DNA of 30,618 bases from assembly GCA_035764305.1 (NCBI GenBank), contig DASTZM010000633.1:1-30618 (forward strand), given 5' to 3'. Positions 2,114 through 25,621 of this stretch are shown piece by piece. Under the pieces are notes generated by a model. That model saw only the letters and a list, made by a program, of their open reading frames with translations. It made no database searches and had not been told where the DNA came from. Numbering within the stretch: position 1 is the first letter of the stretch; the number at the start of each line of letters is the position of its first letter. The stretch comes from Chloroflexota bacterium (GTDB lineage Bacteria; Chloroflexota; UBA11872; UBA12225). The translations under genes were made by a program, and so were the position numbers.

Positions 2114-4534
2114 CTACGCCTCCAAGTGGAACGGCACGCTAATCACTGCCGTTCTCGGCCTGAACAGCAGCGCCCCCTTGATCATCAGCGCAGTATGGGT
2201 GTGGAGCAGATGCTCCCACCAGTGCGCCGGGATGAACTCGGGCAGCAGCACCGTCACGATGGCGGTGCCCTCGGGATGGCGACGCTCCACTAGGTCCACG
2301 TAGCGCATCAGCGGCCCCACCAGCGACCGGAACGGCGCCTCGACGACGACAAGCTCCACGCCCGGATCGTACTGCTCCCATTGCTCCTGCAGGTGCTCGG
2401 CCTCGTCGGCGTCGTCGGTGACGTGGATCGCCTGGATGACTGTGTGGCGCGCCGCGGGTGACCGCCCCGGCGAGCCGGGCGCAGGTGTGTTGTCGTACCC
2501 CGTGAGCGACCGCGCGTAGGTGACCGCGCGCAGGGCGGCGCGGTTGAGGGCCGCCACCGGAATCAGCACGTAGTGGTGGACCTTGGGGACCTGCCGGTCG
2601 GGGTGCTCGGTGTTGTCGGTCGGGTCGATCGCCATCTGCGCCGCGACCGCCCGGTAGTGCGATCGGATGGTCAGCAGCAGGGTGACCAGCCCCGGGATGA
2701 GAATCAGCACGACCCACGCGCCGAGCGCGAATTTCGTGATCCCGACGATCACCAGCACGATCGCGGTCGCCGCGGTGCCCACCGCGTTCACGGCGAGACG
2801 CACCCGCCAACCCGGCTCGCGCGTGCGCCACCACCGCGCCACGAGGGCGGCCTGGGAGAGGGTGAACGCGGTGAAGACGCCGATGCCGTAGAGGGGCAGC
2901 AGGCTGGTGACGCTGCCCTGGAACAGGACGATCAGCACAGCGGCGACGACGGCCAGGATGATGATGCCGTTGCTGAATGCGAGGCGCGCGCCCTGGAAAG
3001 CGAAGTGGCTCGGCAGGAACTTGTCGCGTGCCAGGAAGTACGCCAGGCGCGGGAAGTCGGCGAACGCCGTGTTCGCCGCCAGCACGAGCAGCAGCGCGGT
3101 GGAGAACTGCACCAGGTAGTAGTAGGGGCCGATCCCGACCAGCGTGCGCGTGAGCTGGCTGTTCACGGTCTCCACTTCGCTGGGGTCGGGGACGATGTGC
3201 AGCCAGTTGGCGAGAAGACTGATCCCCAGGAAGATCACGGCGAAGCACGCCGCCATCACGACCAGCACCAACCGCGCGTTGCGGTCGGCGGGCTCCTTGA
3301 ACGCCGCCACGCCGTCGGCGATGGCCTCGGTGCCCGTGAGACCGACCGCGCCTGAGGCAAAGGCGCGAAGAATCAGGAACGCGGAGAGCGCTTGCGCACC
3401 GTGGCCGACGTGCCCCGCGACGTTCTCCGGCGGCGCGACGTACGCCGGCGTATCGCCCGTGAGATAGCGGTAGACGCCGAAGCCTAGGAGGCCGAGCATC
3501 GCCGCGAGGTAGACGTAGGCCGGCGCCGCGAAGAGGCTCCCCGACTCGCGCAAGCCGCGCAGGTTGCCCCATGCCATGATGGTCACCGCCAGCACAGCCA
3601 GCAGCACCCGGTTCTCGAACAGGACGGGGAAGGCCGACGTCAGCGCGGCCACGCCCGCGCTGACCGACACCGCCACGGTGAGCACGTAGCCCACCTGGAT
3701 CGACGCGCCGGCGACGAGTCCGGGGATCGTTCCCAGGTTGTCGCTTGTCACGATGTATGACCCACCCCCCTTGGGGTAGGCCTTGATCGTCTGGAGGTAC
3801 GAGATGACGACGATGACGAGCAGCAGGCCGATCGCGATCGCGAGCGGCAGGGTGAGCGAGACCGCGGCGACTCCGGCCGCGACCAGCACACGCATGATCT
3901 CCTCGCTGGCGTACGCGGACGACGAGATGTTGTCCGAACCGAAGACGGCCAGGGCTTGCGTGTTGGAGAGGCGCTCGTGCGCCTCGTTCTCGCTGCGGAT
4001 CGGCGTGCCGATCAGCGCCAGCTTGGCGCGGCGTACGAACTTGGAGAAGCCGCCGCGCGGCGCGGGCTCGGAGCTGATCTCGTACACGCCGGGCTCGAGG
4101 CGCCGCACCCCCTCGAACTTGGGGCGCACGATGCGGAAGGCGCGGTCGCCAGCGTGCAGGGGTCGGGTGCGCTCGCGCCCGGGCGCCAGGATGTCCACGT
4201 GCTCGGGCGCGTGCTCGGCGCTCGCGTCGCCTACTGGAGGCGGTACGGGGAAGGGGGTGTCTGCGGGGAAGCGAGCGCCTGCCGGCGGCGGTGCGGGGGC
4301 CAGCGCCGCCGCCGGCAGGTCCATGGGAGGCTCCTGGCCGTTCGGCCTGACCCCGCCTAGACGCTCCCTTTCGGCTGCGCTGAGCTCCCCGTTTGGTCGG
4401 GGCGCGGGCTCATCGCCAGCGGCTGGCGCCGGCTGTTCGGGCGTGGTCTCCCCCGTGCCGCCGTTACCGCCACCGCCGCCGCTCGAGCGCCGTCTGACGA
4501 CGCGCGGCTTGTCCGCCTCCGGGAGGACCGGCAC
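2114..4534 (-). CDS. kimA: KimA-like K+/H+ symporter (APC family) with long N-terminal extension
   Basis: TM1 SDNISSSAYASEEI resembles KimA SDALSSVAYGTEQI. AYPKGGGSY, LTGTEAI and ANTAFADFPRL motifs; C-terminal domain ending LPEFIPAHWWEHLLH. GTG 4534 lies 6 nt after the -10 TATGCT. Alternative ATG at 4324 has an AGGAG RBS. The ORF-track start at 4786 is unlikely. Confidence 0.85.
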   Translation of the reverse strand: MPVLPEADKPRVVRRRSSGGGGGNGGTGETTPEQPAPAAGDEPAPRPNGELSAAERERLGGVRPNGQEPPMDLPAAALAPAPPPAGARFPADTPFPVPPPVGDASAEHAPEHVDILAPGRERTRPLHAGDRAFRIVRPKFEGVRRLEPGVYEISSEPAPRGGFSKFVRRAKLALIGTPIRSENEAHERLSNTQALAVFGSDNISSSAYASEEIMRVLVAAGVAAVSLTLPLAIAIGLLLVIVVISYLQTIKAYPKGGGSYIVTSDNLGTIPGLVAGASIQVGYVLTVAVSVSAGVAALTSAFPVLFENRVLLAVLAVTIMAWGNLRGLRESGSLFAAPAYVYLAAMLGLLGFGVYRYLTGDTPAYVAPPENVAGHVGHGAQALSAFLILRAFASGAVGLTGTEAIADGVAAFKEPADRNARLVLVVMAACFAVIFLGISLLANWLHIVPDPSEVETVNSQLTRTLVGIGPYYYLVQFSTALLLVLAANTAFADFPRLAYFLARDKFLPSHFAFQGARLAFSNGIIILAVVAAVLIVLFQGSVTSLLPLYGIGVFTAFTLSQAALVARWWRTREPGWRVRLAVNAVGTAATAIVLVIVGITKFALGAWVVLILIPGLVTLLLTIRSHYRAVAAQMAIDPTDNTEHPDRQVPKVHHYVLIPVAALNRAALRAVTYARSLTGYDNTPAPGSPGRSPAARHTVIQAIHVTDDADEAEHLQEQWEQYDPGVELVVVEAPFRSLVGPLMRYVDLVERRHPEGTAIVTVLLPEFIPAHWWEHLLHTHTALMIKGALLFRPRTAVISVPFHLEA

Positions 4535-13244: not shown

Positions 13245-13262
13245 ATCGGGGAAAACCCCGAT
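13245..13262. promoter_or_regulatory. Palindromic operator ATCGGGG-AAAA-CCCCGAT (distal nifJ site)
   Basis: Perfect 7-4-7 inverted repeat, centred 42 bp upstream of the proximal site. Confidence 0.7.
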
Positions 13263-13286
13263 CCGCTGCCCGCCCGCCGGGTGACC

Positions 13287-13331
13287 CTCAGGGTTTCCCC
13301 TGATGCACGAGCGCCCTGGGTACGTCAAGCT
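13287..13331 (+). promoter_or_regulatory. nifJ promoter: palindromic operator and -10-like element
   Basis: CTCAGGG-TTTC-CCCTGAT (13287-13304), 21 bp, CAAGCT (13326-13331), 6 nt, then ATG 13338. Confidence 0.65.
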
Positions 13332-18135: not shown

Positions 18136-19395
18136 TTAGTCTTCGATCCGCTCCAGGACCATCGACCCGTTCGTGTTGCCGAAGCCGAAGTTGTTCGTCA
18201 TCACGTACCGCAGGGGACGCTCGATCGCGGCGGTGGCGATGTACCGGCGGTGCGGCTCGAGTGTGGGATCCAGCTCCTCGATGTTGATTGACGGCGCGAC
18301 GAAGCCATGCTCGAGCATGAGCAGGCAAAACACCAGTTCGATTCCCCCCGCCGCCCCCAGCGCGTGGCCGATCTGCGACTTTGACGACGAGACGAGATAG
18401 TCACCGTCCCCAAGCTCCTCCACGAGCGAAAGTACCTCCACCGCGTCGCCTGTCGGCGTTGATGTGCCGTGCAGGTTCACGTAGTCGATGACTCCCGGCT
18501 CTAGCCCGCCGCTGCGCAGCGCCGCGCGCACCAGGCGCCGCTGTCCTTCAGAAGATGGCGCCGTCATGTCCCCCGAGCCGTCGGTCGCGCTCCAGTAGCC
18601 CGCCACCCGCGCCAGCGGCCGGGCGCCGCGTCCCAGGGCCCGCTGGGCCGACTCGAGCGCCACTACGCCGGCGCCCCCCGCCGGCACGAAGCCGGCGCGC
18701 GTCCGGTCGAGTGGTCGCGAGGCGCGCTCCGGGCAGTCGTTAGAGTCGGCGCACAGGACGCGCATCGCGTCGAAGGAGTGCGCGCTCGCCCAGCCGTCCT
18801 CGTCTCCCGCACCGCAGAGCACCGTGTCCTGGTAGCCGTGCTTGATCAGCCGGTAGGCGTATCCAATGTTGTGCAAGCCCGTTGCGCACGCGGAGGAGAG
18901 CGCCTCCCCCACACCCCGCGTCTTGAAGTACACCGTTGCGTTCGCGGCGCAGGTCGAGGCCATCGTGCGGTCCACGCCGTGCGACCCGATGCGCCGTGGC
19001 GACCCCTGCTCGATCAGCTTGCGGCCATTTTCGATGATCGTCTCAGCGCTCCCCAATCCGCACCCCAGCACCACGCCGCTCTCGGAACGCTCCAGGTCAG
19101 CCGGCGTCAGCCCCGCCTCACGCACCGCCTGGATCGCCGCGATCGTCGAGTAGAGCGAGGTGCGCGACATCGAGAGCGTCTCCGGCTCGCTTAGGTACTG
19201 GCCGACGTCGAGGTCGCGAACCTTTCCACCCACGTGGCACCGGAAGCCGAGCCGCGCGAAGTCCGGATCCACTGCCAGCCCGCTACGCCCCGCGCGCAAC
19301 GCCGGCAGCGTCTCCGCCACCGAGTTGCCGATAGGCGAGATCACGCCGCGGCCGGTGATCACCACGTCATCAGGGCGTAGTTCGCCTGTCTTCAT
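18136..19395 (-). CDS. fabB: 3-oxoacyl-ACP synthase I (FabB-like KAS I)
   Basis: VVITGRGVISPIG, SSACATG (Cys), NLHGTST (His), KSQIGHALG (His), NNFGFGNTN. MASTCAANATVYFKTRG and FDAMRVL...PERASR are closer to FabB than FabF. ATGA overlap with the upstream gene and GAAGGA RBS. Confidence 0.85.
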   Translation of the reverse strand: MKTGELRPDDVVITGRGVISPIGNSVAETLPALRAGRSGLAVDPDFARLGFRCHVGGKVRDLDVGQYLSEPETLSMSRTSLYSTIAAIQAVREAGLTPADLERSESGVVLGCGLGSAETIIENGRKLIEQGSPRRIGSHGVDRTMASTCAANATVYFKTRGVGEALSSACATGLHNIGYAYRLIKHGYQDTVLCGAGDEDGWASAHSFDAMRVLCADSNDCPERASRPLDRTRAGFVPAGGAGVVALESAQRALGRGARPLARVAGYWSATDGSGDMTAPSSEGQRRLVRAALRSGGLEPGVIDYVNLHGTSTPTGDAVEVLSLVEELGDGDYLVSSSKSQIGHALGAAGGIELVFCLLMLEHGFVAPSINIEELDPTLEPHRRYIATAAIERPLRYVMTNNFGFGNTNGSMVLERIED

Positions 19396-20348
19396 TCGCT
19401 TTCCTTCTGAAAAACGTCGTGCGCCGTGAGCAGCGCGCCGCCCCACGAGAGTCCCGACCCCACCGTCGCTACTACGATCCGCTGCCGCTCCCGGAAGCGC
19501 GGCCCATTCTGCGCCAGCACGGCCGGCGCCCCGGCCGCGCCGCAGTTGCCGTACCGCTCGATCGTGGTCAAGTGCTGCTCGGGGCAGAAGCCCGCGCGCG
19601 CCGCCACCCTCGTCAGGATCCCCAGATTCGCCTGGTGCCCCACGAAGTACGCGACGTCCGCCGGGACCAGACCGCTGCGCCGCAGCGTCTCCTGCACTAC
19701 CTCCACCATCTTCCGGATGGCAAACGCCTGGACGGCGTTGCCGTCTTGCCGGAACGTGCCCCCAACCGGCACTTCCACCGCCGCCGCGTCCGCCGAGCGC
19801 GAGCCGACGAGCGTATCGGTAACTTCCAGACACCGCCCGGCCGGGCGCTCCGCCGTGACGAGACACGCAAACGACGCGTCTCCCCACAGCACGCACGTCG
19901 CGCGGTCGGTGTAATCCGTGACGTGTGTGTAGGCCTCCGGGATCACGAGCAGCACGCGCCGGTGCAATCCCGCCCCCAGCATGCCGCGCAGCGCATGCAG
20001 CGCGAACACAAAGCCGCTGCACGCCGCCCGCACGTCAAAGGCCGGCGCGTCGCCACAACCTACCTGGGCGGCGACCAGGTTCGCCGTCGCGGGGACATGG
20101 TAGTCCGCGATCGAAGGCGCGCACACCACCAGGTCGATCGCCGACCGGTCGTGCCCCTCCAGCGCCATCTCCGCCGCCCGCGCGCCCAGTGCGTGCACCG
20201 GCATGTCCCGCGGGCTGCGACGCCGCTCCCGGATCCCCACCCGCTCGACGATCCACTCGTCACTTGTGTCGACCATCGCCGCCAGCGCGGCGTTCGTCAG
20301 CACCTCCTCCGGGTACCACACCGCCAGCGACGAGAGGAAGATGGCCGT
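19392..20348 (-). CDS. fabH: 3-oxoacyl-ACP synthase III (FabH-like); start codon unresolved
   Basis: VLTNAALAAMVDTSDEWIVERVGIRERR; triad AACSGF, GHQAN, YGNCG; GSGLSWG. No ATG/GTG/TTG at the expected N-terminus: ACG at 20348, first GTG at 20321. Confidence 0.82.
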   Translation of the reverse strand, partial: TAIFLSSLAVWYPEEVLTNAALAAMVDTSDEWIVERVGIRERRRSPRDMPVHALGARAAEMALEGHDRSAIDLVVCAPSIADYHVPATANLVAAQVGCGDAPAFDVRAACSGFVFALHALRGMLGAGLHRRVLLVIPEAYTHVTDYTDRATCVLWGDASFACLVTAERPAGRCLEVTDTLVGSRSADAAAVEVPVGGTFRQDGNAVQAFAIRKMVEVVQETLRRSGLVPADVAYFVGHQANLGILTRVAARAGFCPEQHLTTIERYGNCGAAGAPAVLAQNGPRFRERQRIVVATVGSGLSWGGALLTAHDVFQKESE

Positions 20349-20362
20349 GCCTGGTGCGGTCG

Positions 20363-20617
20363 CTAGCGCTTCGCCGCCAGCTGCTTCGCGTCGATCAGGT
20401 CGGCCGCCGCCCCGACTGTCGTGATCTGCTTCAGCTCCTCGTCGCTGATCGTCAACTGGAACGTGTCCTCCAGATCGAGCACGATGTCGATCAGACTCGC
20501 GCTCGAGACGTCGAGGTCCTCGCGGAAGCGCGTCGCGGGAGTGACGCTCGCCAGTCCCGACTGGTTCTTGGCGAACTTCGCGACGATGCTGGTGACCTGC
20601 TTGATGGTTTCGCTCAT
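20363..20617 (-). CDS. Acyl carrier protein with non-canonical attachment motif
   Basis: 84 aa, acidic. RFREDLDVSSASLIDIVLDLEDTFQLTISDEE aligns with ACP helix II. Strong AAAGGAG RBS. Confidence 0.85.
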   Translation of the reverse strand: MSETIKQVTSIVAKFAKNQSGLASVTPATRFREDLDVSSASLIDIVLDLEDTFQLTISDEELKQITTVGAAADLIDAKQLAAKR

Positions 20618-20659
20618 GGGTTCTTCTCCTTTTGGGTCGTCTGGATCGTGTGGCCCGTG

Positions 20660-20679
20660 CTGAGTGCGAGTGCACTCAG
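20660..20679. other. Intergenic hairpin between fabZ and ACP
   Basis: CTGAGTGC-GAGT-GCACTCAG, a perfect 8-bp stem. Confidence 0.5.
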
Positions 20680-20688
20680 TGCGGTGGT

Positions 20689-21120
20689 TCAGGTGTCCTG
20701 GGCGCCCATGCCACGGATCGTGGCTTCGGCGACGAGCGCACCGGTGGTCGCGTGGTGCAGCGTGGCGGTAGCGTGGATCGCGCGGTGGCGCAGCCACCGC
20801 TTCTCGGCGGTGGCGATCACCTCATCCTCCGGTCCAAGCATCCGGTGGAAGTGGCAGTCCGTCGCCGCCGCGAAGAAGAAGTTTGTCACCGGGATCTTCA
20901 GTTCTCGGGCGTTGTACAGCCCCAGCGCCACCACAAGCTGCCCCATCGTCTCGATCTGGATCACACCCGGCACCACCGGCTTCCCCGGGAAGTGACCCCT
21001 GAAGAAGAACCGATCCGCGCCGTAGCGACAGCGCGCCACCGCTCGCTCGAGTGACAGCTCCTCGATCGCGTCGAGGAAGAGAAACGGCGGGCGGTGCGGC
21101 AGTACCTCACGCGGGTCCAT
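20689..21120 (-). CDS. fabZ: 3-hydroxyacyl-ACP dehydratase, FabZ-like
   Basis: LPHRPPFLFLD, FFRGHFPGKPVVPGVIQIETMGQ (His/Glu dyad). Confidence 0.85.
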   Translation of the reverse strand: MDPREVLPHRPPFLFLDAIEELSLERAVARCRYGADRFFFRGHFPGKPVVPGVIQIETMGQLVVALGLYNARELKIPVTNFFFAAATDCHFHRMLGPEDEVIATAEKRWLRHRAIHATATLHHATTGALVAEATIRGMGAQDT

Positions 21121-21658
21121 GCGCTGCTCCACCGGTGGCTGGGTACTCGTAGGGCAGATCGAACATCCCCGCCTTGAGCCCGCTGCACTCGTAGATCGTC
21201 TTGCCGTCCACCGCCACTGTCCCATCCGCCACGATCGTCGGCTGAGGCTCGCGCACCAGGCGTCGCACCGAGAGCTCGTACGACACGCGCTCATGGTGCG
21301 GTCGGATCTCGCCGCTGAACGTCACCGCCCCGCAGCCGAGCGCCCGCCCGTTGCCGCGGCAGCCGGACCAGGCCATGAAGAACCCGCACAGCTGCCAGAG
21401 CGCGTCGAGTCCCAGGCAGCCGGGCATCACTGGATCCCCACGGAAGTGGCACACGAAGAACCAGTCGTCATAGACGACGTCCTTCTCCGCCACCACGAGC
21501 CCGCGGTCGTGCGCCCCGCCGTCCGCCGTGATGCGGCTGATGCGGTCGAACATCAGGAACGGCGGTGCCGGCAGGCGAGAGCGCGGATCCTGATCCGGCA
21601 GCGTTCCCCAGGCGTTGGCGAGCAGCTCGCGCTTTCCGTACGAGCCCTGACGGATCAC
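21107..21658 (-). CDS. fabA: FabA-like 3-hydroxyacyl-ACP dehydratase/isomerase
   Basis: LPAPPFLMFDRI, WFFVCHFRGDPVMPGCLGLDALWQLCGFFMAW (His/Asp dyad), GRALGCGAVTFSG, near-identical to FabA signatures. Confidence 0.9.
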   Translation of the reverse strand: MIRQGSYGKRELLANAWGTLPDQDPRSRLPAPPFLMFDRISRITADGGAHDRGLVVAEKDVVYDDWFFVCHFRGDPVMPGCLGLDALWQLCGFFMAWSGCRGNGRALGCGAVTFSGEIRPHHERVSYELSVRRLVREPQPTIVADGTVAVDGKTIYECSGLKAGMFDLPYEYPATGGAAHGPA

Positions 21659-22110
21659 GCCGTCACTCGCGTCCCGCTGGCCACTCGCGTTGCTCCAACC
21701 ACCACGAACGCGCCGGCGTACTCGTGCTCGTCGGTCAGGCTGATACTGACGCTGACGTGCCCATCCTTCTCGAGCTCAGCCAGCAATCGCGCCGCCTCGC
21801 CGTGAAACGCCAGCGCCGGCACGCGCGAGCCGAGCCGGCGCACCACCTCGTAGTCGCGAAAGCACGCCAGGCCGTCGGTCGTCCGCCCGGACCGCAGCGC
21901 CAGGTCGCACAGCGCCTTATACGCAGCCTCCTTCGCGGCCCACCGGGACGCGAAGTAGGCCGCTGGGTCGCTCCGCTCGCGCGATTCGGTCACCTCAGCC
22001 GCGGTGTACGCGCGCTCGATGAACCGCGGACGGAGCAACCGGCGGAACTCGGGAACAAACACCAGGTCGTGCCCGGCGGCAACGGTCACCGCCCCACTCC
22101 CGAGAGCCAT
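21655..22110 (-). CDS. acpS: Holo-ACP synthase (AcpS-type 4'-phosphopantetheinyl transferase)
   Basis: GHDLV, RAYTAAEV, SRWAAKEAAYKAL, SVSISLTDE. Confidence 0.85.
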   Translation of the reverse strand: MALGSGAVTVAAGHDLVFVPEFRRLLRPRFIERAYTAAEVTESRERSDPAAYFASRWAAKEAAYKALCDLALRSGRTTDGLACFRDYEVVRRLGSRVPALAFHGEAARLLAELEKDGHVSVSISLTDEHEYAGAFVVVGATRVASGTRVTA

Positions 22111-22116
22111 TCCGAA

Positions 22117-22161
22117 ACACTACGCGCGCCCGCGTGCCCACGCATCCGGGAAAACCCCTAG
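22117..22161 (-). promoter_or_regulatory. fab-operon promoter: palindromic operator and -10 element, leaderless
   Basis: ATCCGGG-AAAA-CCCCTAG (22144-22161), 21 bp, TAGTGT (22122-22117), 6 nt, then ATG 22110. Confidence 0.65.
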
Positions 22162-23342
22162 AGTCGCCCCGCCGCGATCGCTTCACGCTTCACCGTGTCA
22201 GCGGTACGTGTGAGCCGCTTGTGGGAATGCGCGAAGAAGCGCTTGAACGAGCCGCAGAAGTAGGGCAGCGTGTGCTCGGCTGCGCCGCTGCCGATGATGC
22301 GGTAGCGCGGGCAGTCCCCGTGGCACAGCGCCCGCCACGCGCATCCGTCGCAGTCGGCGTGCAGTTTCGGCTTCATCGCCGCGAAGGACCGGAACCGGTC
22401 GCTCGCCAGCATCTCCTCCAGCGGCGTCTGGTGTACGTTCCCCAGTTTCCACGGCGTCTCGACGAAGAAGTCGCACGGGTAACAGTCGCCGTTGTGCTCC
22501 AGCACGATGTAGCCACACGACGGCGCCAGCTGGCACGTCGATGCCCGCCCCAGCACGAGCAGCTCGATCAGGTTGTCGAAGTACCGGATGCGCAGCTTGC
22601 GGAACCCGACGTCCAGCCACGCGTCGAACAGCCCGTTCAGGAACTCGCCGTACTGCTCGGGCGTCACCGAGTACTCCGTGAGGCCCGCCCCGCCGTTGCA
22701 CGACGAGTGCCCGCCCCCCGGCTCGACGCACGGGATGAATTGGAGGTGCTCGATTCCCAGCTTGGCGAAGTACCGCAACAGCTCGCGCGGGCGCTCCACG
22801 TTCGCCGCCGAGACGACGCACAGCACGTTGAATTCCACCTTGTGCCGTCGCAGCAGCTCCACCGCGCGCAGCACGCGCTCGTGCTGTCCGCGGCCTGCCC
22901 GGTCGACGCGATACCGGTCGTGCCACTCGGGCGGCCCGTCCAGACTCAGCCCGATCAGGAAGCGGTTCTCGGCGAAGAAGCGCGCCCAGCTGTCGTCGAG
23001 CAGCGTGCCGTTGGTCTGCAAGGCGTTCGCCACCTCCCACCCCGCGCCGCGCAGAACGCCATGCGCGCGGGACGCCTTGATCTGGAGCTCGACCACCTGC
23101 TTGAACCAGTCCAGCCCCATCATCGTCGGCTCGCCGCCCTGCCAGGCGAAGACCATCTGCGGGGCGCTCAGTCTCGCGTACTGGTCCAGGAACACGCGGA
23201 ACGTGTCCAGCGTCATCCCCGGGTTCGTCGACCATGGGTACAGCGCCTGCTTCTCCAGATAGAAGCAGTACGTGCAGTTCAGGTTGCACCGGCTCGAAGC
23301 CGGCTTGATCAGGACGCTGGCCGGTCTGAGAGCACGGTCCAC
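22158..23342 (-). CDS. Radical SAM/SPASM protein, anaerobic sulfatase maturase (AtsB/AslB) family
   Basis: IKPASSRCNLNCTYCFY (CxxxCxxC), WQGGEP, QTNGTLL, SLDGP; SPASM cysteines CQLAPSC, YPCDF, CDGCAWRALCHGDCP, FC. Confidence 0.9.
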   Translation of the reverse strand: MDRALRPASVLIKPASSRCNLNCTYCFYLEKQALYPWSTNPGMTLDTFRVFLDQYARLSAPQMVFAWQGGEPTMMGLDWFKQVVELQIKASRAHGVLRGAGWEVANALQTNGTLLDDSWARFFAENRFLIGLSLDGPPEWHDRYRVDRAGRGQHERVLRAVELLRRHKVEFNVLCVVSAANVERPRELLRYFAKLGIEHLQFIPCVEPGGGHSSCNGGAGLTEYSVTPEQYGEFLNGLFDAWLDVGFRKLRIRYFDNLIELLVLGRASTCQLAPSCGYIVLEHNGDCYPCDFFVETPWKLGNVHQTPLEEMLASDRFRSFAAMKPKLHADCDGCAWRALCHGDCPRYRIIGSGAAEHTLPYFCGSFKRFFAHSHKRLTRTADTVKREAIAAGRL

Positions 23343-24643
23343 GATGCCGTCACCTCCGGTACTTCGATGCGCCTAGACGGCAGCCAGTGCCGTCCGATCC
23401 GGACGGCGTTGACGACGAACGCTCCCGCGCCCGCCGACATCGCTACGCCCGCGGTCACAGCCAGCGCCTCCGCTCCGAGCAGCGGCGCCAGACCTCCCAG
23501 CGCCACTCCCATCACCCAGCACCCCCACCCGAACATGGCCACCCGCCGGCCGAACAGGTCGTCCAGCCGTGGCACGCGCTGCTTGCCCGCCAGCGGCGCG
23601 AAGCGGTGCAGCCAGGTCAGGAACGTGCCGATCTTGTAGAAGAACCCTTGGATCGATGTCTGCGCCCATCCGGCAATCGTCCACCACGCCGCCACGCGCC
23701 ACAGCCCATCGTCCGCGGCACGCTGTTGCGCGAAGCCCTGGACAAGCAGCGTTGTCGCCGCAAGGCCGAACACCGCGGCGGCGAGCGAAAACGGCATGTG
23801 CACGTCGAACGTGCGCCGCCGCCGGTGTCGGTACAGCAGGAAGAGCTGCGCCGCGAACAACACCTGGCCAGTGAAGAGGAACACCGCCCCTGCGGTCAGC
23901 ACCGCGTTTCCCAAACCCGTCAGCAGCGCGGCCGCCGTCGTCCACGCGCCGAGCACCGTCGTGGCGAGTGCCGCCAGCGCCAGCTCCCAGCGCAGCGCGT
24001 CCTCACTCAGCGTGAACATCCCTACCAACCTGTAGCTCACCCCCATCAACATGGGAGTTACCCACCCGCCCAGCATGAGCGTGGCGTGCGCCGCCAGCGC
24101 CGGGTACGTCAGCTCCTCCAGGAAGCCCACCCGCTTGCTCAGCGCCAGCAGGAGCCCCGCCACGGCGGCCCACGCCAGACCGACGCAGCCCGCCGACACG
24201 TGCCAGGAAATCAGCCCCGGGTGCCGTTCACGCGCCAGCGTCTTCACCACAACCCCCAGGTAGAGCGCGACAGCCCCGAACGCCAGCGCCCCGCCAATCG
24301 CCACCAGTGCGCTCTGCTGGCTTCCCAAACCCAAGACAAACGCCACCACGCCCGGCGCCAGCAGCCACCAGGACATGCGCGCCAGGCGTATAGACCCGAG
24401 CGGCACGCCAAGCACCACCGGCAGCAGCTGGTAGCTTGCGCCCATCATCCCTGCGCCGATCACGCCCAGCGTGTTCACGTGCACGAACGCCGTCAGGTGC
24501 GGGTCATAGAAGGCACCCAGCAATAGAGGCACGTGCCACGGGTACACCAGCGCCATCAACGCGAATGACGCGACCCCCACTGCCAGGAACCGCAGCGGCA
24601 GGTCGAGCGGCGGCGCGTGGCGCGCCGACAGGCCCGCCGTCAC
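23309..24643 (-). CDS. Polytopic membrane protein, heme-copper-oxidase-subunit-I-like / NnrS-like family
   Basis: About 12 TM segments with repeated H-x3-LG motifs (HVNTLG...YQLLPV, HATLMLGGW...YRLVGMF). This family is typically found next to DUF2249 and DUF59 genes. Confidence 0.7.
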   Translation of the reverse strand: MTAGLSARHAPPLDLPLRFLAVGVASFALMALVYPWHVPLLLGAFYDPHLTAFVHVNTLGVIGAGMMGASYQLLPVVLGVPLGSIRLARMSWWLLAPGVVAFVLGLGSQQSALVAIGGALAFGAVALYLGVVVKTLARERHPGLISWHVSAGCVGLAWAAVAGLLLALSKRVGFLEELTYPALAAHATLMLGGWVTPMLMGVSYRLVGMFTLSEDALRWELALAALATTVLGAWTTAAALLTGLGNAVLTAGAVFLFTGQVLFAAQLFLLYRHRRRRTFDVHMPFSLAAAVFGLAATTLLVQGFAQQRAADDGLWRVAAWWTIAGWAQTSIQGFFYKIGTFLTWLHRFAPLAGKQRVPRLDDLFGRRVAMFGWGCWVMGVALGGLAPLLGAEALAVTAGVAMSAGAGAFVVNAVRIGRHWLPSRRIEVPEVTASWTVLSDRPAS

Positions 24644-25576: not shown

Positions 25577-25621
25577 AGCCTACGCCTGTTAGGAGCCCGG
25601 CGCATCAGGGTTTTCCCCGAC
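25577..25621 (-). promoter_or_regulatory. DUF59-operon promoter: palindromic operator and -10 element
   Basis: ATCAGGG-TTTT-CCCCGAC (25604-25621), 21 bp, TAGGCT (25582-25577). Extra half-site AGAA-CCCCGAT at 25549-25559. Confidence 0.68.

Follow-up and report, generated by a model that had tools for sequence, protein, structure and literature searches.

A trimmed fabA-fabB cassette with its own carrier protein in a Chloroflexota genome: a probable accessory route to unsaturated acyl chains

The O2-independent synthesis of unsaturated fatty acids by FabA and FabB is usually described for the alpha- and gammaproteobacteria. An operon encoding both proteins, along with a private carrier protein and a transferase predicted to activate it, is found in an uncultured soil member of the Chloroflexota (GTDB lineage UBA11872; UBA12225). 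Its six genes occupy positions 18136 to 22110, on the minus strand, of a 30,618-nucleotide contig (DASTZM010000633.1, assembly GCA_035764305.1), which was analyzed over its full length and is referred to here as the window. On balance, the operon is probably a trimmed, horizontally mobile accessory type II fatty acid synthase (FAS) that works beside the housekeeping FAS and makes cis-monounsaturated acyl chains without O2.

At the 68-70% G+C content of the window, many spurious open reading frames (ORFs) appear. Genes were called from a plot of G+C by codon position together with stop-to-stop translations, and identities were assigned with Pfam and NCBIfam. Six consecutive intact genes emerge, in the order AcpS-FabA-FabZ-ACP-FabH-FabB. 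The first encodes an AcpS-type 4'-phosphopantetheinyl transferase (PPTase) (21655-22110, 151 amino acids; PF01648, 42.7 bits). It is followed by FabA, a 3-hydroxyacyl-acyl carrier protein (ACP) dehydratase and predicted trans-2 to cis-3 isomerase (21107-21658, 183 amino acids; PF07977, 148.8 bits), a divergent FabZ-like dehydratase (20689-21120, 143 amino acids; PF07977, 53.9 bits), the private ACP (20363-20617, 84 amino acids; PF00550, 32.6 bits), a FabH-like ketoacyl-ACP synthase of type III (KAS III) (19392 to about 20342, about 316 amino acids; NF006829, 264.3 bits; cut-off, 249), and finally a KAS I-like (FabB-like) elongating ketosynthase (18136-19395, 419 amino acids; PF00109 and PF02801). 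Profile searches found no FabG, FabI, or FabD in the operon or in the rest of the window. A first-pass annotation, made from the DNA letters alone, had listed these same six genes, noted the lack of the three others from the operon, and assigned the catalytic pairs His/Asp to FabA and His/Glu to FabZ; every gene lies where it was placed, and both pairs are kept in alignments to solved structures. Its picture of genes coupled by overlaps is right for three of the five junctions (PPTase/FabA, 4 nt; FabA/FabZ, 14 nt; KAS III/KAS I, 4 nt) and wrong for the other two, as 71 nt separate FabZ from the ACP gene and KAS III starts about 20 nt past the ACP stop. That start is itself uncertain. No ATG, GTG, or TTG is present where homologues begin, just after the ACP stop (20321-20366), and the candidates are a rare ATC at 20342 and a GTG at 20321, the latter giving a protein seven residues shorter.

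Are these proteins truly FabA and FabB? FabA scores 215.5 bits against NF003509 (cut-off, 124), clears the PF07977 cut-off of 23, and at 204.3 bits falls under the cut-off of the stricter model TIGR01749 (238.15). It aligns over its full length to the FabA structures of Escherichia coli, Pseudomonas, and Yersinia at 166-176 bits, is 52-57% identical to proteobacterial FabA, and, in alignment to the E. coli enzyme, keeps the catalytic His70 and Asp84 (E. coli numbering) within CHF...PGCLGLDA. The KAS I-like protein carries the motifs ACATG, HGTSTP, and GHALGAAG of a Cys-His-His elongating ketosynthase, and its top 17 matches in the Protein Data Bank (PDB) are all FabB (293-303 bits), while FabF reaches at most 267 bits. 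Its best NCBIfam model is the KAS I model NF005935, at 367.7 bits; because this lies under the cut-off of 630, the protein is called FabB-like and is no strict KAS I equivalog. In a ketosynthase tree it groups with FabA-linked FabB, leaving the genome's own FabF outside (98% support in the Shimodaira-Hasegawa-like approximate likelihood ratio test [SH-aLRT]). Judged by these profiles, alignments, and trees, the FabA and FabB-like proteins belong to the true FabA and FabB lineages.

The FabZ-like dehydratase reaches 71 bits against TIGR01750 (cut-off, 155); in the PDB it matches FabZ best (50-58 bits), and it retains the GHFPGKP...E motif. KAS III scores 220 bits against TIGR00747 (cut-off, 292), and its Cys, His, and Asn align with those of Aquifex FabH. 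Relatives have a housekeeping FabH of 385-418 bits, from which this protein, at 219 bits, is distinct.

The window contig is the longest of 833 in a 4.54-Mb metagenome-assembled genome (MAG) that is 75.9% complete with 4.8% contamination. Other contigs of the MAG encode a FabD homologue with an adjacent short-chain dehydrogenase/reductase (SDR) (C827), a FabF (C279), a FabI-like protein (C274; 224.6 bits, compared to at most 93 bits for other SDRs), a canonical ACP with the DSL motif (C441), and a second, more canonical AcpS (C421). Given these parts, the six-gene operon is additional to the housekeeping FAS and not, as the first-pass annotation had allowed, the organism's sole FAS locus. The ACP and PPTase that it had seen as dedicated are indeed extra to a canonical pair.

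How might the six proteins work together? The cassette AcpS would turn the private ACP, with its SSA motif, into the holo form. FabH would initiate chains, with malonyl groups loaded by the housekeeping FabD, and the FabB-like KAS I would extend them. FabZ and FabA would both dehydrate, and at about C10 FabA would isomerize the trans-2 to the cis-3-enoyl-ACP. FabB would then take the cis-3 intermediate past the enoyl reductase, leading to cis-monounsaturated acyl chains without O2. Of the two reductive steps, ketoreduction could be supplied by the host SDR next to FabD and enoyl reduction by the host FabI-like protein. The chains would presumably be used in membrane lipids.

How widespread is such an operon? 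No true FabA turned up in 400 genomes sampled from the phylum (E <= 1e-30) or in 40 relatives, and a FabA query against genome contigs returned no window-type cassette, only distant FabA of at most 57% identity. The cassette is rare, because only about 40 ketosynthases among 5.8 billion clustered proteins match the window KAS at E <= 1e-120. At least 12 contigs from metagenomes or MAGs carry the same cassette between differing flanks, in the order AcpS-[FabL-like enoyl reductase]-[PlsC-like]-FabA-FabZ-ACP-FabH-FabB, sometimes with FabD after it. Its hosts are Chloroflexota and other high-GC soil bacteria, and related KAS genes carry Myxococcota names. The SDR of the fuller cassettes has the enoyl reductase FabL as its best match (131-163 bits, under the model cut-off), and a 274-residue cassette protein is PlsC-like by language-model features (score, 0.96), with explicit PlsC genes (PF01553) present in contig L090 and in clusters of a sister type described below. 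The usual enoyl reductase and the frequent PlsC-like gene point to fully reduced acyl chains intended for glycerolipids. The window copy is a trimmed cassette without either gene, and two copies related to Chloroflexota (L001 and L089) also lack FabH.

In ketosynthase trees, the window group forms a starred clade, separate at 99% SH-aLRT. It is sister to a second operon type, and both are sister to the FabB encoded next to fabA in gammaproteobacteria, with FabF outside; the Chloroflexota KAS proteins make up a single starred clade within the basal polytomy of the cassette clade, a placement that points to no taxonomic donor. The second operon type reads FabD-enoyl reductase-FabH-FabA-(FabG)-FabZ-KAS-ACP-PlsC/PPTase and occurs in Bdellovibrionota, Gemmatimonadota, and Syntrophales with a sporadic distribution (among Gemmatimonadota, 5 of 301 genomes have it). 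In genomes of Gemmatimonadota, Oligoflexus, and Syntrophales, it coexists with a canonical acpP. The FabA tree gives one supported clade for the proteobacterial enzymes and another for those of the second operon type, and the window group stands apart from both on an unresolved backbone. The cassette is patchy across phyla and has differing flanks on every contig, the marks of horizontal spread.

Seen against these results, the overall interpretation in the first-pass annotation survives in its account of the host, of the private ACP and AcpS, and of the accessory status of the operon, and fails on the uniqueness of the packaging. FabA/FabB chemistry is indeed outside its usual hosts here. The packaging with a private ACP, which had been seen as out of the ordinary, is recurrent, and a sister form has been published (PMC5423948). 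Of the checks it had proposed, the synteny search yielded a conserved cassette with unrelated flanks; the phylogeny placed the KAS with FabA-linked FabB, and the position of FabA is limited by the backbone of its tree. The suggestion that the module stands in for O2-dependent desaturases gains a supporting point, as the MAG yielded no PF00487 desaturase and just two of nine same-family genomes have one. The locus adds evidence that FabA/FabB chemistry crosses phyla in the form of a compact cassette that brings its own carrier protein and that has here reached a soil Chloroflexota lineage where no FabA/FabZ-type dehydratases, nor desaturases in most genomes, were found by our searches.

When would such an operon be expressed? 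The palindrome ATCRGGG-N4-CCCYGAT has 3 sites in the window (0.29 expected) and 32 in the MAG (4.0 in shuffles). The window sites lie at 13245-13304 and 25604-25621. Sites precede genes for pyruvate:ferredoxin oxidoreductase (PFOR), FeoB, a universal stress protein, and a multicopper oxidase, as well as an operon encoding a DUF59 protein, a DUF1858/DUF2249 protein, a membrane protein, and an anaerobic sulfatase maturase (anSME). On another contig (C446:4801-7015, locus L094), a site precedes the gene for an Rrf2-family regulator, followed by that for NirK (TIGR02376, 352 bits; cut-off, 296). The set looks like an NsrR-type nitric oxide (NO) or Fe-S regulon, of which the Rrf2 protein on C446 is the candidate reader. 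The cassette begins 47 bp past the anSME stop, and the gap before the PPTase gene (22111-22161, minus strand), when its sequence is read, contains a degenerate palindrome and then TAGTGT. The TAGTGT lies 21 nt downstream of the palindrome, the same spacing as between palindrome and TAGGCT at the DUF59 operon. In contigs L001-L003, the cassette is directly behind nirK and a membrane-protein gene. Two related lineages therefore carry it at different loci, each time behind NO/denitrification-type genes, which makes its co-expression under anoxic, NO-generating conditions, and thus induction at low O2, plausible. This placement offers a testable link, in soil bacteria not yet cultured, between the remodeling of membrane lipids and anoxic nitrogen metabolism.

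Several points weigh against the proposed role in unsaturated acyl chain synthesis. The isomerase activity of FabA is a prediction of a kind that sequence cannot prove; FabA and FabZ structures indicate that it is how the active-site tunnel is shaped, rather than residue identity, that sets isomerization. The FabB-like, FabZ-like, ACP, and AcpS proteins all score under NCBIfam equivalog cut-offs. No cassette-type homologue of the missing enoyl reductase or PlsC-like gene was found in the MAG, so the gene content offers no evident route from acyl chains on the private ACP to lipids. The only copy of the palindrome in the gap ahead of the cassette (22144-22161) has three mismatches and, because 3-mismatch matches are common in such DNA, this degenerate site alone is weak evidence; the operator is absent ahead of the cassette in contig L001. 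Finally, relatives of the cassette adjoin hydrocarbon genes (aldehyde decarbonylase [ADO] and reductase), a cyclopropane synthase gene, and secondary-metabolite genes, and the product may be a specialized lipid instead of a bulk membrane fatty acid.

Could the operon then be a dedicated synthase for a specialized lipid or natural product, such as a hydrocarbon, a cyclopropanated or otherwise tailored chain, or the tail of a metabolite? The private ACP would segregate the pool of intermediates, and the tailoring genes would lie elsewhere in the incomplete MAG. This is possible, though we regard it as rather doubtful. In its favor, the cassette of one contig (L091) is followed by an aldehyde decarbonylase (PF11266) and an NAD_binding_4 reductase, one relative has a CMAS-type methyltransferase and another KAS as neighbors, and a KAS from Pendulispora brunnea (67% identical) occurs with an SDR and an ACP, AMP-ligases, and AurF, though without FabA or FabZ. 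The seeming orthogonality of the ACP/AcpS pair, discussed below, would also fit. Evidently, the pool on a private ACP can serve more than one end. On the other hand, the cassette has no gene for tailoring, a thioesterase, a reductase, or export next to it in the window, L001, or L089, the MAG yielded no homologue of ADO or fatty acyl reductase (FAR), and the accessory genes vary by contig, so that none defines the cassette. It is the lack of tailoring genes at the Chloroflexota cassettes and of ADO/FAR in the MAG that ranks a role in unsaturated membrane acyl chains above a specialized product.

The two clusters with tailoring genes deserve a brief description of their own. In L091:10306-13867, the full cassette is followed by the decarbonylase, a 208-amino-acid unknown protein, the reductase, and FabD, a set that possibly makes alk(a/e)nes from chains supplied by the private ACP. 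The Pendulispora brunnea cluster (L088; CP089982.1, 10550670-10571929) encodes a pair of AMP-ligases, another ACP, an AurF-like oxygenase, and an Orn/DAP decarboxylase; by this content, it is a natural-product cluster that has recruited part of the cassette.

What sets the carrier protein apart? The cassette ACP scores 32.6 bits against PF00550, above the cut-off of 20.8, and 49.5 bits against TIGR00517, below the cut-off of 70.45. In HMMER alignments, its V-S-S-A-S aligns to A-D-S-L-D of the Bacillus subtilis ACP, and the second Ser of VSS corresponds to the Ser that bears the phosphopantetheine there. The acceptor Ser is therefore kept, while the two Asp residues around it and the Leu have given way to other residues, leaving S-S-A in place of the canonical D-S-L. 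The motif VSSA[NS]L is conserved among cassette ACPs, and the sister cluster type has VNSARL. The cassette PPTase exceeds the cut-off of TIGR00556 (62.3 bits; cut-off, 45.35) and falls under the AcpS equivalog cut-offs. When eight cassette AcpS proteins were aligned with the housekeeping AcpS of the MAG, the Arg of the housekeeping motif EIPRVA was found replaced by E, G, D, or A in all eight, and the aligned cassette proteins share a 7-residue insertion. In the B. subtilis AcpS-ACP complex, acidic residues near the ACP Ser touch an N-terminal Arg of AcpS. If that contact is the right one, the changes in ACP and AcpS co-vary, a lead suggesting that the pair is orthogonal to the housekeeping one. 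A broader and more tentative proposal builds on this: the cassette may be a plug-in FAS whose orthogonal ACP/AcpS pair would allow FabA/FabB chemistry to run in any host, whatever ACP that host has, and whose separate pool of cis-unsaturated chains would go into end products that differ between hosts. In soil Chloroflexota, it would have come under an Rrf2 (NsrR-like) NO/denitrification regulon, with unsaturated lipids being made once O2 has run out. Orthogonality, if real, would explain how the cassette works in distant hosts and would make it an insulated carrier system usable in engineering.

It is improbable that the operon has a housekeeping role after all, as the source of the only FabH and the only FabZ/FabA-type dehydratases of the cell, essential to the main FAS. 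The MAG did yield no second FabH (TIGR00747) and no other PF07977 dehydratase, except for domains of the polyunsaturated fatty acid (PUFA)-synthase type on contig C175; the MAG is, however, only 75.9% complete. A housekeeping FabH of 385-411 bits is present in seven of the nine same-family genomes, and the window FabH, at 219 bits, is no ortholog of it. Eight of these nine genomes (G001-G009), most with a FabH above the family cut-off, have no PF07977 protein, so that another dehydratase must serve the FAS of the family. The canonical ACP and AcpS of the MAG and the lack of FabA in the relatives argue in the same direction.

Two observations on the other contigs may be added. The exception on C175 (locus L062, 2986-5205) is an open frame of more than 1,700 amino acids whose tandem FabA-like dehydratase domains (PF07977; 145 and 109 bits) resemble those of PUFA-synthase-type enzymes, and the same is found in one same-family genome (G006). 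Beside the FabD homologue and SDR on C827 (about 3550-3950, locus L060), an ACP-like ORF reads DDLNVDRQELVD and lacks the Ser of the phosphopantetheine site.

Might the contig simply not belong to this genome? A mis-binned or chimeric contig, with a proteobacterial or myxobacterial fragment inside a Chloroflexota bin, could be imagined from the contamination of the MAG and from the lack of FabA in the other genomes sampled from the phylum, and it is highly improbable because the contig's PFOR is 62-75% identical to same-family PFORs (and of a type not found in the sister family), the lineage-specific palindrome is on this contig and 24 more of the MAG, the PPTase/anSME junction is bridged by Logan contigs from three independent soil studies with 0-1 differences, the closest KAS (87% identity) comes from another Chloroflexota MAG, and the genes flanking the cassette in L001-L003 are 58-70% identical to genes on C446. 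The best named relatives of the MAG's MetK are labeled "Chloroflexi/Chloroflexota bacterium" (79-91% identity). Among the Logan matches listed, no contig bridges the downstream YeiH/KAS I junction, and the neighbors around PFOR include none in common with same-family genomes, so synteny gives no insertion boundaries.

How does the cassette compare to known systems? The closest published parallel is in Coxiella burnetii, where CBU_0034-CBU_0038 code for ACP, FabB, FabZ, and FabA as well as FabH; this operon was acquired horizontally and en bloc, adjoins a vertically inherited saturated FAS, and has been read as an added unsaturated-fatty-acid route (PMC5423948; bioRxiv 10.64898/2026.05.14.724635). 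The second operon type described above is of this Coxiella kind. Both systems gather FabA, FabZ, a FabB-like KAS, FabH, and an ACP of their own into one operon beside a housekeeping FAS. They differ in gene order (FabH-FabA-FabZ-FabB-ACP in the Coxiella type), in the ACP motif (NSA instead of SSA), and in KAS clade (separate, and sister to the window's), and the Coxiella-type FabA falls in its own clade and is only 42-48% identical to the window FabA. The window operon, in addition, is headed by a PPTase and has a Chloroflexota host.

The classical FabA-FabB pathway of E. coli, and of Pseudomonas with its fabAB, shares with the cassette a His/Asp FabA at the level of identity given above and a KAS that is closest to FabB structures. 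In contrast, it uses the single housekeeping ACP and is not packaged with FabZ, FabH, ACP, and PPTase, and the window KAS is only 41-43% identical to the gammaproteobacterial FabB encoded next to fabA. The rhizobial acpXL-fabZXL-fabF2XL-fabF1XL cluster, which makes the very-long-chain fatty acid of lipid A, likewise joins a private ACP to a dehydratase and ketosynthases of its own and keeps a segregated acyl pool beside the housekeeping FAS. That cluster has no FabA or FabB-type KAS and is linked to the lipid A acyltransferase LpxXL; no LpxXL-type gene is present at the window cassette. An aryl-polyene type II polyketide synthase (ApeI/ApeP) was considered and rejected, as the ApeI-like hit on FabZ reaches 20.5 bits (cut-off, 28.5) and there is no chain length factor; the dehydratase being a true FabA and the FabL-like enoyl reductase of the fuller cassettes also speak against it. 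Those fuller cassettes resemble the alphaproteobacterial fabA-fabB-fabI arrangement (Sinorhizobium FabI2; PMC11616126) in having a dedicated enoyl reductase. In Enterococcus faecalis, fabI-fabN-fabO is likewise a separate small operon, which supplements the main FAS operon with an isomerizing dehydratase, a dedicated KAS, and a specific enoyl reductase (PMC9671860). Unlike the cassette proteins, its FabN and FabO derive from FabZ and FabF and not from FabA and FabB, and no private ACP or PPTase belongs to the module.

Taken together, second-FAS cassettes of the Coxiella type were known already, and the window locus is a distinct subfamily by its order, PPTase head, clade, and host. What is new is the Chloroflexota host, the SSA-type ACP with an altered AcpS, and the site downstream of NO/denitrification-type operons in two lineages.

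The neighbors of the operon call for a few last remarks. The anSME upstream is a radical SAM/SPASM protein (22158-23342; TIGR03942, 392 bits; cut-off, 349), and the window encodes no sulfatase. A functional link between anSME and the cassette was rejected, as the two are not adjacent in L001, L089, or the other cassette contigs. The 444-amino-acid membrane protein further upstream (23309-24643) matches no Pfam or NCBIfam family and, by BLASTP, is not similar to the unknown membrane protein encoded behind nirK on C446. As for PFOR, a long ORF starting at GTG 13050 spans both operator copies, and the true start is likely ATG 13338, 34 nt past the second of them.

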